DNA from: Kondoa subrosea
Taxonomy: Eukaryota
Length of the DNA stretch: 64,000 bases
Assembly (NCBI GenBank): GCA_039545335.1
Contig: BCIN01000005.1
Span: forward strand, 710,641 to 774,640
Direction: 5' to 3'
The notes beneath the pieces are model-generated. The model saw only the letters and a program-made list of their open reading frames with translations, ran no database searches and had not been told where the DNA came from. Of the stretch, positions 11,462 through 43,134 are shown in pieces. The position numbers and the translations under genes were made by a program. Each line of letters opens with the position of its first letter. Position 1 is the stretch's first letter.

Positions 11462-13338
11462 TCAACTGAATAGTCTTCCCCGAAAACTACCTGCAGACCA
11501 AATACTATCTAACCAAGCTGGTTCATAAGATCGCTTTGTCACCTTCTTCCCTTGTACACCAAATGCTCCAGGCTGATCAAAAAACCAGAACGCTTGAGAC
11601 TGATAATCGGCTGCCTTCTTCGTCATCCAAGCCTTGTACATGCCATCGGAATCTCCATATACAGCTTGGACAGCGGCGATATGAGGGATCAGTTCAGAAA
11701 CAGGTTCGCTGCCAGGATCACGTTTCATAAGATAATCTGCGGCGTTCTGAATCGTGGCGTTCTGTGCTGATGTGTAGGACCAGAAGTCTAGACCGAGACT
11801 GTCGCCAAGCTTTGCAGAAGTGATCATCGCTTCAAGGTTGAAACAGCTATAGTGGAATGGTCGTGTTCTAGCTAATTCTCTAGGCTGCGCAAATTGTTAG
11901 AAGAGACGGAATATTTCAGCCAAAGAAGGCTCACTTGACTACCGTCCGCCATGATTTGAGATTTGAAAGCGCCACAGAAATATGAGTTCAGTGATTGTTT
12001 CGCTCCATCTGAATCGCCCAACAGGATCTTCAAAGCCGCTACTTGATTATAGTAGAAGGTGCCATGATTGCTACCAGGTAGATCTTAGCAAATTACGGCT
12101 GCTGATTAACATTGAAGACTTACTTAGGTGCTTGCGAGGCTTTGACTCCTTGCGGACTGCTTTCCAACCAAGACAAGTACGCTTTACTCCAACTTATCAT
12201 AGCAGTATCGTATTCTTGCGTCCATTCCTCAGCCTTGGTTGCTCTCAAAATCATCACCGCATTAACCACTTTGACCATTGCCCGGAAATCCAATATACCC
12301 ATAAAACTTCCAGAGGTCTTGCCTTTGCCTCTAACAATTTGAGCATAATTGAGATTAGGGTTCATCCCTAGTTCTGGATCGCCAAAGAAAGTATAAAGCT
12401 GTTCTGCTGCTCTTGAAGAATAGATTGAGGATCCATTGATCACGAAAGCCATTGCGTTGTCCATAGCTGAGATAGAGGTATAGCCAAAGAATTTGCCAGC
12501 TTCTAATGTTTGAACATCTGGGTTAACCAATCCATCTCGAGCAATGTAGGAGCACTGCGACCAAGCTAACGCAATTTTGATCAGATTAGGCATTGGTTGG
12601 ATCCGTGAGTGACGTACTAGCATTATCAGGAAGCCCTAGCTCAGGTGAAGGGCAAACTGATTGATAGCTTTGTTGAGCAGAAGAACCTCGCTTAGTGAAA
12701 GAAGAACGACAGTAGCATTTCTTTCTTCCCTCCGGGATAGCATAAGATCGTTCAGCCAGACTAGGAGTTGCTGATGCTGGTACTACGATAGATGAAGAAG
12801 AACGCGAGCGAGATCGAGAAGATTTTACTGCGGACGGGGAGACAGATGCCGATGCTGATGCTGATGCAGCGGCCAGCGCAATGGAGGCTCCTGCTGAAGC
12901 TCGGCCACTAGTGTTCCAATCGCAAGTCGAACAGTTAGGCCAATGACTACAGAACGAGTTAGCATGTCTGGACACAACGTGACTGACTACATACTAAGGT
13001 GCCCAACTCAGATAGTCCTTCGGATCGCCAGAAGGCGCATTATTTTTAGCCCGTGTCACAGCTGTAAAATTGTCATAAGCTTCCAAGATCTGTGACAGGA
13101 AAATGTCTTACACCAAGGTCCGCTTGAAGAAGAGCTGTCTGCATCTTGTAGTATTGTCGCTACTGCCTCATTGACACTAGGATCTCTCTGCTGCGCTGCA
13201 GCGATGAGGTAGCTAGGATCGATCCAGTCATTGATAGCTAAAGTCTAGTATCAGCATTGGCCTGTAATTTTGATGAAACTTACCTATTATTCCGGTAATA
13301 TGAACGACCAGCGTCCAAGTCAATAGTATGCACACCAT
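11462..13338 (-). CDS. Secreted alginate-lyase-family (alpha/alpha toroid polysaccharide lyase) protein
   Basis: Hydrophobic N-terminus MVCILLTWTLVVHITGII; PSGDPKDYLSWAPYHWPNC; YIARDGLVNPDV; MNPNLNYAQIVRG; NHGTF; ELARTRPFHYSCFNLEAM. Confidence 0.85.
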
Positions 13339-35551: not shown

Positions 35552-38500
35552 TCACTCTTTGCACGCACCTGACAAACGACAAACCGACACTGAACTACCC
35601 ATTCTTTCACAGAAGTATAAACTGCCTAAGACCAAATTAGACGAGCGAAAAGCAGATTTATGCAAAACTTACCCTTTCCATTGTGTAGATAAACGACATC
35701 CCTGAGATTAGTAAATCCTTCTGGCGTGAACTTTCGCCTCTTCAAAGCCTGCTCCGGTCCGACTTCGATACTCACAAGCTGTGCAGCATGATCGTGCGTA
35801 GATGGACCGCCAACGTCTATTGCTTGTAGGTCCGTAGCGCCAACGCCGACCAAGACAGTCTTGCGACCTCCTTGTACTACCATCATCTCGATGCGGGAAA
35901 ATTGATGCAAAGCTCGAAGATGATCGGGAGTCGATTCTGTCAGAGGTTCATTTGGCTTCCACTGGATTGCTTTTCTGATAACTGAACGACCATCACCATC
36001 AACAATATCTGAGGGGCAGAAATGAGCGAAAAAGATACTGTTGAAGCCAGCTCCTGACTTACTGGTCATATTTCGACCTCGCGACACAAAGAACAAGCCC
36101 GGCTTCCCCGCATTACGATGAGGATGATCAGCCAGAAGAGAAATTGGGGAAAGTAGAGATTCGGATGCAGATGATCTTGCAGCAGAATTTTCTGGTGCTC
36201 GATGAGGATTAGAGAAAGGATCAGGATTGCTGAAGATGGCTAGAGATGCAGGCAGTGGACTGGAAGAGACGACAGAATCATAGGTCGGCGGTATTACATA
36301 GCTGTTATCCACACATTGTCAGTAGTGATCACCAATGTGCAGATAGACTTACGCGGGTGCCAGGACGCTCGGCGGTACTGGCGGAATGAAATCGAGCTGT
36401 TGGAAAGTTGTGAAGGGAATCTTCGGCTTATTTGCTATTCCATTAGATGAAGTTCGCTGCGGTACGCCAGCAGATGCAATGGATACCGTTCGCGAAATCT
36501 CTTCTGGTTCCGCTTCAGCAAAAGAGGCTGGCCGATCGGCCTCGTTCTGCTCAAAGCTTGCACGAATCTGATTTTGTTCACCAGGGTCTGAAGCCGTGTT
36601 GTTCTGACGTTCCTGCTCCCGTTGACGGCGTGCTGCTCTTCTTTCGTTCCTGCTAACGCCGACCTCACGGACTCGAACAGTGGACGGCTCTAAAGCAAAG
36701 ATGCTCTCATCGTATACCACTGGCAAAGCAATCAGTTCAATCTCTTATCACATACATAATACTTACAATATATGTCCACAAGCTCATCGCCTTGCAGCTG
36801 AAATTCGAAAGCAGAGGGGCTTTCCGGTAATACAAACGTTCTGTTGGTGGGCACCACAATCAATACAAGGACAATGTAGCGCGATTGTCCAGCTCACCTA
36901 TTCAGCGACAGCGAAACGTTCTTGGAGCCCTATTATGTCATGGTCAAACACGCTCTAATTGTTCCTGATAGCTACTCACAGTGAATAGCTCGATTCTTTC
37001 TCCGACATCTCCGCACAAGACAGCAAGATAGGTCCGTTTGGTAGTCTCGGCAGCCCGAATGAAACGAGTTCCCTTCGTTCTGGCTAGTTTCACATAATCC
37101 AAAGGAGATGTAGCAGAGGCAGGATGAACTTCTGCCGCAGCTGAAGCCGCATTCTCTGCGCGCGAGTTGTGTGATTGTGCCAATCCTGCTTCAGTTTCAT
37201 CTAACGTAGGCAAAAGAGTAGCTGGTCGAGGCTTCTCCGGAAAGAAAGCATTGCTGTCGTTGTCTTCTTCGATCTCTTCTAGAGAGTCAGTTCGAGTTTG
37301 CTCTTGGGAAGGTCTTGTGCCGAATCCGCTATCAATAACAGCCATTACAGCTGTTTCACCATATCGAGAACGCGAAGCTTCAGCAGGCGCTTCATTCTGA
37401 TCGCTTTGAGCAATCGGGGGTGTAGAAGGAGTAGAAGCCGGCGGTCTTCTGACACCATCGAGCAAACTCCATCGTTTCCGTTGTCGAGCAGTGACAGCCA
37501 TCGGATTATGGTTTTCTGGCTCAGATGGAGCAGGTAGATTATCGCTATCGGGATTAGATCCAAATGCAGCGTTTTGAGCGATCAAAGGTGTAGCTTCAGT
37601 TCGCCAACTGCTATTTGAAGCGGAAGAAACAGTTCTGGTCATTGTGGATCCACGAGCTGGTCTGTTGCGTTGCATGACTTGTGATGTACTAGGTTCAGGC
37701 GGGCCATCATTGAGAAAGTCAGCTAAAGATCTACTCGCTTCGACTTCTTCGCACATCCTTGCAACAGAAGCCGATCGAGGTGTAAGTCTGGTCCTGGAGC
37801 TTGATGTTGAAAGCATAGATTGCTTGGAGGCTGATCGAAGCATGGTCGTCACAGAAGTTGCGGAAGCTTGGCTTGTCTCGCTGGCCAAGCTGTCATAGGT
37901 ATTAGAATTAGGTATGTCAGTACCATTTTCGGAAACACTATTCAATTTCCGATTGTTGCGAGGAGAAGAAGGTTCAGAAGTAAGAGCTGATTCAGAAGTA
38001 AGAGCTGATTCAGAAAAGAACTTTGTAAGTTCAGAGGTGAAGGACGATCCGCTATCTTCGCGGGACATTTGCGAAGCGGAACGAGGAGCGAATCGTTGTC
38101 TTGATTCAAAGGTGGGTGAGGAAGCTTTAACGGGACTACTTGAGCTTCTTTCTCTTGTTTGTGTACCTTCTTTTGCTGCAGATAATCCATGAACAGCGTT
38201 GTCATCCATGAGTATTTGAGCAAGTGACACTCCTGGTCCAGTAGCATCTTCAGGTAGCACTCTTGCCGATCGAGCGAGCTTGTTTGAAATGGTCGATGGG
38301 TTAGGCCGAAGCAAGACCGATTCCTGTGAAGCTTCAGCTGAAGATTCTTCAGCTTCGATATTTGACCATGATTCATCTGAATGCCTAGGCATAGCAGGTA
38401 CGGGTGGTATCGCTGATTCGCCATTGGCTGAAGGCGAAGCTGGGCCAGCGTAAGAAGCCCGTCGAGTATGATGCCGCGAGGAAGTAGAGCCGGAATGTAC

Positions 38501-40377
38501 GCTGGCTAGACTAGCTCTTCTTCCCGCTCGTAATGTGTCTCGACTTCGAGGAGATTTCAAAGATGGATTTGTTGGAATGGCAGTAACTATCGAATGGCTT
38601 CGCGATCGAGGATTAACTGGCCGAGGTGTAGTAGGAGAGACGTGCGAAGGTCTGCGAGACGAGTAGCCAGGAGGAGGAGAGATCGGTGGTTGAGATACAA
38701 TAGCACTCGGTTTTGTAGCTGAACTTGAGCTGGATGCAAGAGTTAGAGGCGGCGGTGGAGCTGCTCTTCCTTTGCCTTTGAGATCTGCCGCTTGCGGCGA
38801 AGCAACAGTTGTAGCATTTGCAGCTGAGTTGGGATTCGCTCTTGCTAATGCGCGGGCTCCGAAATGAGTAAAGTGATCTTTCATCCTCTTCTCTATCATA
38901 GTTCGAATGCCGTCCAAAGCATACACTGGGCCAGTTCGTAAGCTCAGAAATCGCAAGACTATCGGTCAGGTCACACCTCGAACATGATCGTTTCTTCCCG
39001 CAACAGCCAATAATATGTTACTCCTCTCCTTCAGTATTACAATCTGCTTGAACCTAGTTCTTTTGATCAAAGCCAAAGGTTTCTTCACTATTGGTGCACC
39101 ACTTTTCCCATTTGATCCAGCTGGTCTGAAGAGAGGTATAAAGTCTAAACCCATTGTAGTTCCGATGAGAAGGTATCGATCGTCTAGAACTGCTCCGCAG
39201 AGGGGTATGCCGAAACGGGAAACAGGTTGACTAGGTATAATTTGATCTAATTTGAGGTTCATTTCTGCTAAAGTAGGTTCTTTAGGTGTATCATTGCTTT
39301 TGAGTGGTACTTTTGAAGGAGAAGAACGAGGTGAAGGGCGCAAAGAGGAAGTGGACGGTCGATTGTCTAGAACGGGAGAGGCAGGTTGTGAGCGACCAAA
39401 ACCAGAGGTGATACCCAGTCCTAGACTAGGTCGAAATCGAGCCATATCGGAAGCTAGACTTGCTGACCGAGAAAGAGAAGATTGAGCCGAAGGTGGATTA
39501 GTGTTGTAATTAGGACTTCCGTCATATACAGGTGATGTAGGAGAAGGTGGTGCTGAAGTATTTCTGACATGTTGACGATTAATAGGTGAAGAGGGAGACG
39601 AAGCGGGAATATTTCGGTTGCGCGGATGCAACAGATTGGCAAAGAAAGACCGGCGATTGGTATTCTGAGCAGCAGGTGGTGTTAAAGCAGACTGTTCACA
39701 GAAGTCTTAGTTGAAAAGTCAGATTCTGATCGTTGACCACGTACATCTGCTGCCAATCTCGCTAATGGACCGCTGGCAACGCTAATGTATGGCCCGCTGT
39801 CTTCTGCGCCAGCGTTGAAATTCGCATTAGATACAGAGCGGAAGGGTGCATGTTGCCCGTGTGCCACTTGCGACTCTTCGAAGCTAGGCAAAGGAAAATG
39901 TGATCCTGTCCATCCATCTTCTGCTGCAGGTGCTTGTACCAGCTCGTCTTCTTCTTCTTCCCTTGGCGTATTAAGCGGTGAATGATCTCTGTCAGCTGGA
40001 TGCCTATCCCCGGGGTGCTCGAAGAGACCCATCATACTAGTCGGTCGCGCATAAGAAGTTCTTGACACGGGAAGCTCAAGCAATGGTGTATTTTGATTTG
40101 GGAGAGCGAGCGGAGTGATCGATTCTTGTTCTTCAGCGAGAGAAGCACGTCTAGCGAGCAAATTTGAAGTTGAAGCATTGGCCATATGTGACGTTGGTAA
40201 TTGCAGCCCAATCCCACTCAACTTCCTTTCGGCCGCTTGTATAGGGTCCACCTCGTTGCTAGCAGCATCTTCGCCGCTTGTGTAGTCAGACAGAGCTCCA
40301 TCAGATTCTCTATTGTTCGAATTCGACATATTTGACAGGGTGACTTCTAGTTCCGTGCTGCTTGGTGCACGAGTCAT
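35552..40377 (-). CDS. Large Ser/Pro-rich protein with a split CNH-like beta-propeller
   Basis: Ordered blocks LCGAVLDDRYLLIGTTMGLDFI, LIKRTRFKQIVILKERSNILLAVAGRNDHVRVYAL, YVKLARTKGTRFI…YLAVLCG…IELF and FFVSRGRNMT, separated by long disordered inserts. Confidence 0.75.
37973..38015. repeat. 18-bp in-frame tandem duplication (ttcagaagtaagagctga x2.4; encodes SESALT repeats on the minus strand)
   Basis: Read directly within the CNH-like gene. Confidence 0.9.
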
Positions 40378-40649
40378 GATCGTGCTTCTAGGCAAGCATC
40401 ATCCATGTATAGTGCACGAGGAAGATTTTGAAGCTGCGACAGTTCTATGGATCGAGAAAGGTGTTGCACGAGGCAAAACCAGGCTGGAGCGCGCTCAGTC
40501 CTCGTCAAGCTTTTTCTGTAGATGACGGTTGTCACTGCTCTTGAGCACTGTACAAAAGCGAACCAGCCAAGTCGACCTTCGCAATTACAAACGCGTAGCC
40601 GCAAATGGGCAAAGTAAACATTTACTTCCGCACCCAGTTAGACTTTTTT

Positions 40650-43134
40650 TCACCAGCCCCAAGCATTGCCATCATCCTTTGGTGGATCCGGAATACGGTC
40701 AGTCGCAACTTTAGGTGTTTCATCGCCCCAACCTGTTTTCGAATTGTAAGCTCGAATCATCTCAGATTACGCAAACACTCACCCCAATCTACAGGAAGAA
40801 GAGGCTCCTTTGGTGGTCTGGACATAGATCTTGCTCGAGGAGGATTGGCTGCTTGCGCGGGATTCTGGTTCTGAGATTGATCCGACATGATTGGACGAGC
40901 TTGCTGAACAGGCTGTCCTGCTGCTGAACTCAACCCATTCGTCCGAGAAGCGGAAGGCCCTGTGGGAGGAGGTACAGCGTGATTGGGCTGATGCTGTTGA
41001 TGTATTTGCGAAGCTGAATTAGGTTTGGAGGCAGATTTATGGAAGCCATTTGCAAGTGGTTTAGCTGTGGCTTGTGTAAGCTTTCCAAGAGCGACGAGAA
41101 GACAAGCAGTACATCCATCATCCCCGCATGATTGATAAGGATGAGGTGGAGGTTTAGGTTTCTTAGAAAAGCCTAGGAGAGTTGGCTGATGCGTAAGATT
41201 AGTACTTCAGCTATATGAAAGTACCAATGGACTTACTTGAGGAGAACCTGGTCTTGATGGTGCATATGAACTAGGAGCATAAGCACTTGCGCTCCCAAAC
41301 CCATTAAGCTGATGATTAGCGAAAGAATCTTCAGCCGCTCGACTTCTCCCTCTTGGTCTACTAGCAGCTCGCATTGATCTCGAATCGTCTTCCAATTCCC
41401 GTTGCATTGCTCTTCCTCTTTCTTCAGCTTGATATTCATCCATCAAATCCGCTGGTCTTACTCTGCTCTTGCTTCGAGCTCTTCTATTCACAGGCGGCGG
41501 AGAAGGAGAGGCTGATTCCCTGTGATGATGCCTAGATTGACTTCGTTCCCTTCTAGGAGGTGGTGATTCGGAGGGAGAAGCTCGAGCATGCCGAGATCGA
41601 CTTTGATTTTTGCGAGCGGGAGGTGAGTCAGATCGATCTCTGTGCGCAGGTCTACTTCGACTGCGATGCCGCCTTGATGGAGGCGATTCTGATCTGCTTG
41701 AAGCGGCTGCACGACTGCGACTGCGGCCACGGGTGGAAGGAGGACTTCTGCTTCTCCGTCGAGGCGACAATGCTCTGGTTGGACTGCGATAATGTTCGAA
41801 ATCATCTCTTCGACTCGGTCTAGGAGGTGGGGAGTTGCGATAGCTAGGAGAAGACTTAGAACCACCTTGAGCTGGATTGCTTCTGCTAGAGTCATAATTT
41901 GGGTGAGCTGTAGTCGCTCGAGGCGCGACTGCAGGCCTGCTGTGATCCACATCGCCCCAAGCTGATTGTCCACCATTAGAGTTCCTGTCCAAACCAGAAT
42001 CCACGCGACTTCTTTTCGTTGGTCTTGTATCCCCAGAATCGCCCCAAGGTGAGTTGCCAGGTTGACGATCATTGAGCAAACGATATGAATCAGACGTTGA
42101 TCTCTTGGCGGGAACACTATCGTCATTATCCCAACCCCAACCTTCAGCAGCAGGTGGTGCACTTGCTTTAACGGGTTGCGACTGCTGAGGTGTAGGCGCA
42201 TCTCCCCAAGCATGATCTTCAGCGTGAAAGACTCGAGCTGGCGCTGAAGATGTACCGGGATTGCCCCAAGTCGAATCAGGGCGAGCAGATAGAGTTGAGG
42301 TAGAAGCTCGGGGTTCAGAAGGAGGGCTAGGTATGTTTCTCCGGGGATCCAGGGTACGAACGGGTAGAGGAGGCGAATCTTCAAGCTGAAATGGAGGCGG
42401 CTCTCCTTCAGGTGTTGGAGGTTGTGCTGATAGTTCGAATCAGTGAAGCTCTAGCCAATGACGGAAATGCATACTGGTAGGATCTTCCTCGTCATTCCAC
42501 TCATAGAACGTCTGAGGCTTAGGCGGTCCAAGTCGTTGAGATAAGTCTGGAGTCTTGCTCTAGCTCATCCTAGAGACAAATGGGAATATGCAACTGACTT
42601 ATTGCGAAACTTCTTCGGCCGTCACCCCAAGGGAAGTCTTCAGGCGTATTACCTCTTGCTGCAGGTCGACTTGGTGCACGTCTATCGTCTCTATAGTCAT
42701 TTCTATCTCTTGATGCGCCTCTGCTTCGGCCTCGCGGTTCTCTGCTTCTTGATCTTGATCTTGCCCTAGGAGCAGACAGTCGAGGCTACAATTCAGATCA
42801 GCTACGATAACAGCAGCCTCATCTGACGACAACTCACCCGAGGTGGTAATCCAATGCTGCGTGACATGACAGGCTCAGGTTCAGCCGCGGTAGGCGGTTT
42901 AGCTCCCCAGCGATTCTGGGTGAGAGGCGCAGTGTTTGCTGTGCAACATAGCCCGACTTGAGCATGCCCATAGGTGCTGTCATTACGCTTGCTCTCACCT
43001 GCTGTTACGGTTTCCTGGTTATACCTGGATTTCTTCTTGCCTGCTACAGGCGGTTCGTCATATTCAGACCACTGCCCTTCTTCATAGCTGTCCGGCGTCG
43101 ACGCTGCTAGCATAGCCAGCCTCTCCGGATTCAT
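40650..43134 (-). CDS. Disordered RS-rich protein with dispersed WG/GW motifs (candidate Argonaute-hook protein)
   Basis: Spliced model begins MNPERLAML and ends DDGNAWGW*. Motifs NRWGA, FPWGD, STWGN, HAWGD, EGWGWD, SPWGD, SAWGD, VDWGWGD, NAWGW; RSRSRSR tracts; HPYQSCGDDGCTAC. Confidence 0.75.

Follow-up and report, generated by a model that had tools for sequence, protein, structure and literature searches.

A candidate Argonaute-hook adaptor with WG motifs and RS tracts in the fungus Kondoa subrosea

Fungal Argonaute cofactors evolve fast and escape homology searches, and few are known beyond Cryptococcus, Neurospora and fission yeast. In this report we focused on a minus-strand gene at positions 40650-43134 of a 64,000-nucleotide stretch of the Kondoa subrosea genome (assembly GCA_039545335.1, contig BCIN01000005.1, positions 710,641 to 774,640; hereafter the window). 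The main finding is that its predicted product, which we call the WG/RS protein, carries a Gly next to 12 of its 14 Trp (WG or GW motifs), dispersed in low-complexity sequence that also holds tracts rich in Arg-Ser (RS) and Ser-Pro (SP) dipeptides. Our preferred, and tentative, reading is that of a lineage-restricted, mostly disordered nuclear adaptor in which the WG motifs would serve as Argonaute hooks and the RS/SP tracts as tethers. That the protein is an Argonaute hook of some kind, taking nuclear and cytoplasmic variants together, comes close to an even chance without reaching it. Disorder, nuclear location, Argonaute binding and a role in silencing are properties that we infer from the sequence.

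Tryptophan-glycine motifs and gene model

The enrichment of Gly around Trp (10 WG, 4 GW and 5 WGD) is far beyond what composition yields: none of 100,000 shuffled versions of the protein reached 12 Gly-adjacent Trp, the maximum being 8. A background sample of 113 kb (the window and nine other loci of this genome, the WG/RS gene excluded) supplied 33 long non-overlapping open reading frames (ORFs), in which 10 of 127 Trp adjoin a Gly (Fisher p 6e-10 against 12/14); in eight hand-picked low-complexity ORFs of the window, the count is 1 of 11. The WG sites of the main cluster are spaced 20, 23, 29 and 29 residues apart, and thus lie within the range reported for TNRC6 sites, which use Trp pairs separated by at least ten residues (PMC9262622). 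The Gly codons of the WG sites vary (GGA, GGT, GGC) and the flanking DNA has no shared repeat, which argues against a recent tandem expansion and indicates selection at the protein level. Patterns for WG triplets at three spacings, run genome-wide on DNA, returned four loci and were in frame only in the WG/RS gene; among the loci returned by genome-wide patterns of fixed spacing (WG/GW triplets, WGW[GDE] and paired WG[DN]) there was no second WG-rich disordered protein.

When the exons are joined by coordinate, the gene is a single open frame from an ATG at 43134 to a TGA at 40652-40650, encoding 723 residues in seven exons, or 743 residues in six exons if the 60-nt intron 1 is retained. The six introns are all GT-AG and 48-60 nt long (42998-42939, 42837-42786, 42598-42547, 42474-42427, 41236-41186 and 40782-40733), and we infer their splicing from these sequence features. 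Each of introns 2-6 is required, because keeping intron 2, 3, 4, 5 or 6 cuts the product to 90, 150, 176, 571 or 704 residues, respectively. Intron 1 (42998-42939) contains no stop, keeps the reading frame and has the GC content of an exon (0.53), and its standing as a true intron is uncertain. The gene is single-copy (one match among six candidates in a genome search), and its product is rich in Pro (15%), Ser (14%), Arg (13%) and Ala (10%). An earlier sequence-only reading of this DNA had given the same coordinates, 14 Trp with 12 next to Gly and a series of quoted motifs, all of which we reproduced in the 723-residue frame. That reading had also called the gene unannotated, consistent with the lack of a self-match in a protein search with exon 6, and had overlooked the conserved helix and Cys/His module listed below.

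The exon 6 search recovered one protein among 344 candidates: P0002, an unnamed 237-residue Logan fragment (E 3e-14, a cluster of one) that spans residues 494-697 of the WG/RS protein. P0002 reads through a 17-codon intron exactly at the position of intron 5 and terminates at the start of intron 6; these positions, together with the match across exons 5-6, support the gene model for its last two introns. A search with exons 1-2 gave no match among three candidates, all proteins of 54-174 residues. That a wrong hand-splice or mere chance lies behind the pattern seems to us extremely improbable: the uncertainty of intron 1 speaks for it, whereas a single unbroken frame of 410 residues already holds 6 of the 12 Gly-adjacent Trp, the introns are uniform in their borders and lengths, the orthologue agrees with exons 5-6 and with the position of intron 5, and none of the 100,000 shuffles reached the observed count. 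The features of the gene are as follows.

40650-43134, minus strand: entire coding region of 7 exons (6 with intron 1 retained), encoding 723-743 residues of low complexity rich in Pro, Ser, Arg and Ala
42999-43134, minus strand: exon 1, with the ATG and an acidic EEGQW (W22, not adjoining Gly)
42939-42998, minus strand: possible intron 1, 60 nt, GT-AG, in frame, uncertain
42838-42938, minus strand: exon 2, with NRWGA (W56)
42599-42785, minus strand: exon 3, with RS tract 1 (residues 80-112, 42785-42687) and FPWGD (W132)
42475-42546, minus strand: exon 4, with YEWND (W158, not adjoining Gly)
41237-42426, minus strand: exon 5, 1190 nt, containing the main WG cluster, RS/SP tract 2 and the helix conserved in the orthologue fragment
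41951-42268, minus strand: main WG cluster, residues 219-324 (STWGN, HAWGD, EGWGWD, SPWGD, SAWGD)
41453-41842, minus strand: RS/SP tract 2, residues 361-490, basic, without Trp, five S-x-S-P-P units
41378-41443, minus strand: conserved helix, residues 494-515 (MDEYQAEERGRAMQRELE...), 22/22 identical in the orthologue fragment
41048-41182, minus strand: Cys/His module, residues 564-608, 36/45 identical in the orthologue fragment
40783-41185, minus strand: exon 6, with the Cys/His module, a Q/P/N-rich linker and PVDW
40650-40792, minus strand: C-terminal WG sites, VDWGWGD (interrupted by the intron at 40782-40733) and NAWGW followed by the stop
40732-40650, minus strand: exon 7

Two side observations can be added here. 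A Leu-rich stop-free shadow frame of 320 codons overlaps exon 5 in a shifted frame (window 41488-42450, minus strand), probably because T is scarce at codon position 2 of the true frame. Elsewhere in the genome, an ORF at L030 (G000:C6:876900, minus strand) has another small WG-D cluster at its end, NWGWDSD...EWGDS.

Host Argonautes and the hook reading

In the adaptor that we favor, motifs of the form small residue-W-G-[D/N] would hook Argonaute, with two Trp spaced by 20-30 residues entering the Trp pockets of the PIWI domain. The genome has the genes that such a role would call on, with two Piwi (Argonaute) loci, four RNA-dependent RNA polymerase (RdRP) loci (12 matches in four places) and two paired-RNase III loci, one of which also carries helicase and Dicer-dimer domains. 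The Argonaute loci are L015 (G000:C2:1104500-1111000) and L016 (G000:C4:1020500-1027500), hereafter the C2 and C4 Argonautes, the C4 gene being broken into many very short exons. Pocket residues described for human AGO2 are K660, L694, F653 and R688 (10.1101/2025.10.18.683247), as well as C691 and P700 (PMC9262622). In alignments to human AGO2, both host proteins retain K660 and P661, and at position 653 the C2 Argonaute has Phe and the C4 Argonaute has Tyr. One Argonaute exon, of 26 residues, proved too small for an alignment with human AGO2, and positions 680-700 were therefore assigned by ungapped counting. The C4 Argonaute has Y654 by alignment and K688, C691, I694, Y698 and P700 by ungapped counting; the C2 Argonaute has E654, followed by K688, L691, F694, G698 and P700 (ungapped counting beyond 679). 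The C4 Argonaute thus appears close to human pockets 1 and 3 and the best kept of the two, and would be the likeliest partner of the hooks.

Two observations on these loci stand apart from the WG/RS gene. Four RdRP loci (L007-L009 and G000:C3:234986-237028) in an 18.9-Mb genome compare with the one reported for Cryptococcus neoformans (PMC6643885). The second paired-RNase III (Dicer-like) locus has a 595-codon ORF as its head-to-head neighbor (L018:2272-4059, minus strand); this ORF has no Pfam match, and it carries an acidic stretch, PWTEDDEGNTPWGEE, at its N-terminus and a cluster of Cys.

The published GW domain score (dos >= 6.99, ics <= 2.14; Karlowski 2010, PMC2910046), of which we applied dos alone, gave a divided answer to the predictor check that had been proposed. 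The dos cut-off of 6.99 was passed by six of the seven seeded domains of the WG/RS protein (top values 21.8, 15.0 and 12.1), which take the top three places among 37 seeds in the 113 kb, and G/S/N/A/D are frequent around the WG sites, in line with the GW matrix of that publication (PMC2910046). However, 11 of 34 background seeds also exceed the cut-off, as do two of four seeds in the lasso of the host Dsl1/ZW10 orthologue, and the best value of 21.8 is lower than 16 of the 18 Arabidopsis rows displayed in the source (PMC2910046). As evidence the score is weak, both modest and unspecific.

Besides the score, several observations weigh against Argonaute hooks. The sole WG site within P0002 reads PVDFG where the K. 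subrosea protein has PVDWG, a change of Trp to Phe. The DNA patterns do not prove the WG/RS gene to be unique, because the Dsl1 lasso escaped them. In the C2 Argonaute, E654, F694 and G698 are unfavorable, and F694 may resemble L694Y, a pocket-blocking change that contributes to abolishing binding in human AGO2 (10.1101/2025.10.18.683247). Fungal Trp pockets are described in a recent analysis as variable and outside the shared eukaryotic repertoire (PMC12477606). Finally, aromatic residues in disordered regions, Trp among them, are reported to promote condensation without pocket binding (10.1101/2025.10.18.683247). The hook proposed by the sequence-only reading therefore survives in part: motif context, spacing, the presence of RNAi (RNA interference) genes and pocket residues would fit it, whereas the modest score and the Phe at the only site visible in the orthologue would not.

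These points lead to an explanation nearly as likely as the nuclear hook adaptor, namely a nuclear RNA-processing scaffold resembling serine/arginine (SR) proteins and without an RNAi role, in which the WG sites would be condensate stickers or ligands of other Trp readers. Condensation driven by disordered Trp, the modest and unspecific score and the change to Phe at the one visible WG site all suit it, as do two features of the protein itself: conservation peaks in the helix (22/22) and in the Cys/His module (36/45) rather than at a WG site, and an RS tract is its longest compositional block. On the other hand, stickers need no Gly after 10 of the 14 Trp, motifs of the ULM and ARS2 types were not found in the protein, and no analysis suggested a named partner for a scaffold.

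The W-G-W motifs raise a further explanation, in which the protein is COPI-associated and offers delta-COP di-tryptophan ligands, like the Dsl1 lasso and ArfGAPs; we consider it highly improbable. A di-Trp motif class is listed in ELM (PMC7145657), three W-G-W sites are present, some with an acidic flank, and EGWGWDNDD resembles the lasso motifs DGWGFEEEE and AGWEFDDD. However, whereas all five Trp sites of the Dsl1 lasso have a second aromatic residue at +2, only 3 of 11 do so in the WG/RS protein, and its Trp lie in a less acidic setting (net acidity 2.2 versus 5.0 in the lasso, and 0.9 versus 3.8 Glu per 12 residues). So few di-aromatic sites and such low acidity make a delta-COP ligand unlikely for the protein as a whole, and the RS tracts would be left without account. 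The lasso deserves mention in its own right: in the Dsl1/ZW10 orthologue (L056:340-800; G000:C8, about 412140-412600, plus strand), a protein with a vesicle-tethering role, it is acidic and holds five W-x-[F/W] motifs (DAWGF, AGWEF, DAWGF, DGWGF and SSWEW), with the Trp adjoining Gly in four, so that GW predictors have in it a helpful negative control from the same genome.

RS tracts, conserved modules and genomic setting

Both RS/SP tracts that had been noted earlier are borne out, at residues 80-112 and 361-490, and the protein holds 24 RS and 29 SR dipeptides in all. RS/SR dipeptide cover in a 50-residue window rises to 42% (windows starting at 374-401), versus at most 18% in the eight low-complexity controls, R+S content reaches 62% in 50 residues, and the longest pure run is RSRSRSR (3.5 dipeptides). 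SR-related proteins are recognized by an RS region of at least 50 residues with more than 40% RS content, and here the fit is marginal, with 24 windows reaching 40% and a maximum of 42%. SR proteins proper have one or two RRMs in addition to an RS domain. Pfam scans of exons 1-3, 5 and 6 found neither an RRM nor any other family at E<=1, and exons 4 and 7 (24 and 27 residues) are below the size needed for an RRM; a classical SR protein was rejected for want of an RRM. The proposed link to splicing hence keeps its RS tracts, but these are a matter of composition, with no RRM or splicing-factor domain and no named homologue beside them: RS composition is the whole basis of the splicing half of the hypothesis. 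In the adaptor reading, the basic RS/SP tracts, switchable by phosphorylation, would tether the protein to nascent RNA-protein complexes, the nuclear ribonucleoprotein served being possibly the spliceosome, a cap-binding or decay complex, or a transcription complex.

Two more specific partners were considered and not supported. The ULM pattern is absent from the WG/RS protein. An ARS2-binding protein was rejected as well: an ARS2 homologue is present in the genome, but EEGQW does not conform to the reported ARS2-binding motif [ED][ED]GE[ILV] (PMC9402713). As a separate observation, ELEDGEIPED in an ORF that looks eIF4E-like by eye (L019:2134-2682, plus strand) matches that pattern exactly.

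The RS tracts also bear on where the protein would act. Tracts dense in RS dipeptides usually mark nuclear proteins, and both the RS cover of up to 42% and three K-[KR]-x-[KR] patterns argue against a cytoplasmic or P-body Argonaute hook like Cryptococcus Gwo1 or animal GW182, in which the RS/SP tracts would be phospho-regulated, RNA-binding disorder. Such a hook would draw on the same WG and pocket evidence as the nuclear adaptor and has a precedent in the Ago1-Gwo1 complex of Cryptococcus P-bodies (PMC6643885), and we judge it improbable.

At the other extreme is a single-chain counterpart of SCANR, the nuclear complex of Cryptococcus neoformans described as consisting of Rdp1, Ago1, Qip1, Gwc1 and Srr1 (PMC7763443, PMC4778953, PMC6643885, PMC10402008). 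The RS/SP tracts would dock on slow or stalled spliceosomes, about ten WG hooks would gather Argonaute and small interfering RNA (siRNA) production would start, while a zinc micro-domain formed by the His/Cys module, together with the invariant helix, would bind an RdRP or a splicing factor. We place this variant among the unlikely ones, because what points to coupling with stalled spliceosomes is RS composition only. The background invoked for it earlier, a division of labor between a GW protein, Gwc1, and an RS protein, Srr1, holds for both as components and for Gwc1, which is termed a 'GW/WG protein', but the accessible parts of these sources do not confirm Srr1 as an RS protein.

Conservation is highest in two parts of the gene, the helix (residues 494-515) and the Cys/His module (residues 564-608). 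Identity with P0002 is 22/22 in the helix, 30/48 between the modules and 36/45 in the Cys/His module, compared with 19/68 in the Q/P linker and 11/21 at the end. The Cys/His module consists of a proline run, H577-x4-C582-x4-C587-x2-C590 and then a helix, an arrangement that probably binds zinc. The two modules may mediate binding to a fixed partner or self-association. AlphaFold models built on 2-3 sequences are of low confidence (pLDDT 60.7 and 45.7) and contain isolated helices only; in the one of P0002, the invariant helix corresponds to the predicted helix H3-23.

Searches for relatives ended with P0002. A profile of residues 494-697 run against 1.84 billion representatives found P0002 only and no named protein. 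Neither Pfam nor NCBIfam has a family for the exons scanned, the ESM Atlas gave no usable match for exon 5 or the Cys/His module, and PDB sequences gave no match at E<=10. Fold searches returned nothing in Foldseek and a best Z of 2.5 in VIA-align, which, with low-confidence models as queries, show neither novelty nor the absence of a known fold. One metagenome candidate for the Cys module (one locus among at least 581 pattern matches) was rejected as a chance KPKPPPHP in a bacterial-looking Rieske-type gene.

As to its setting, the window lies on contig G000:C5 of an assembly of 18.9 Mb in 27 contigs, and the neighbors of the WG/RS gene encode a PP2A scaffold, a HECT ligase, a DEAD helicase, Trs85 and an alginate lyase, with no RNAi genes among the neighbors scanned. 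These genes and the short, closely spaced introns are consistent with a fungal genome, probably that of a basidiomycete yeast. The alginate lyase family gene (PF05426, E 1.8e-21; window 11462-12635, minus strand) is an observation in itself in a fungal genome. The downstream neighbor (window 35626-40398, minus strand) is long and has disordered exons rich in S/P; a Pfam scan of five of its frames gave no match, and we take its short folded-looking stretches to resemble a CNH-like propeller.

Comparison with known systems

GW adaptors and RS proteins are kinds already known, which limits the reach of the finding, as do the small number of sequences, two, from which the WG/RS/Cys-His protein is known and a host that seems not to be a model organism. 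What sets it apart is the combination in one chain of dispersed WG motifs, RS/SP tracts and a His/Cys module, which matched no family and was not found in a literature search covering titles and abstract openings, with few subscription papers. If the WG motifs do bind Argonaute and the RS tracts sit on splicing complexes, the protein would be a single testable link from intron handling to siRNA production, and splicing-RNAi coupling would not be peculiar to Cryptococcus. If the SCANR-like variant is true, this fungus, with its dense introns and four RdRP loci, would have coupled RNAi to splicing by a route of its own. Should the Argonaute link fail, there would still be the strongly conserved His/Cys module and the helix, neither of which matches a family.

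Among known systems, the closest in motif context are the Argonaute-hook proteins, of which fission yeast Tas3 is a WG/GW example. Like TNRC6/GW182, NRPE1, SPT5L/KTF1, SDE3, SGS3 and WGRP1, the WG/RS protein has dispersed Gly-adjacent Trp in low-complexity sequence rich in G/S/N/D. Unlike them, it has linkers rich in Pro and Arg rather than Gly, has no attached enzyme or RNA-binding domain, and has a dos far below those given for NRPE1 (170), KTF1 (586) and SDE3 (75) (PMC2910046). With delta-COP di-Trp proteins (ELM LIG_deltaCOP1_diTrp_1; the Dsl1 lasso and ArfGAP1/Gcs1) it shares three W-G-W sites and some acidic neighbors, but its sites are mostly single Trp and it is far less acidic than the host Dsl1 lasso.

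Comparators on the RS side are the SRSF family, SRRM1/2 and the SP repeats of the BUD13 type. The WG/RS protein resembles SR and SR-related proteins in its basic RS/SR and SP-rich tracts and differs in that the exons scanned against Pfam hold no RRM, PWI, cwf21 or any other domain. The TAZ-type zinc unit, whose spacing is H-x3-C-x4-C-x2-C, is the nearest parallel to the Cys/His module, in which a His and three Cys likewise come in much the same order ahead of a helix, but with H-x4-C spacing, as a single unit and with no match in Pfam, PDB sequences or fold searches. Finally, searches with the C-terminal residues 494-697, whose profile matched only P0002, showed no sequence link to SCANR or Gwo1, whereas the cellular context is shared: as in Cryptococcus, the host is an intron-rich fungus with Argonaute, RdRP and Dicer, and Argonaute partners of the GW type have a precedent there, Ago1 being reported to associate with Gwc1 in nuclear SCANR and with Gwo1 in P-bodies (PMC7763443, PMC4778953, PMC6643885, PMC10402008).

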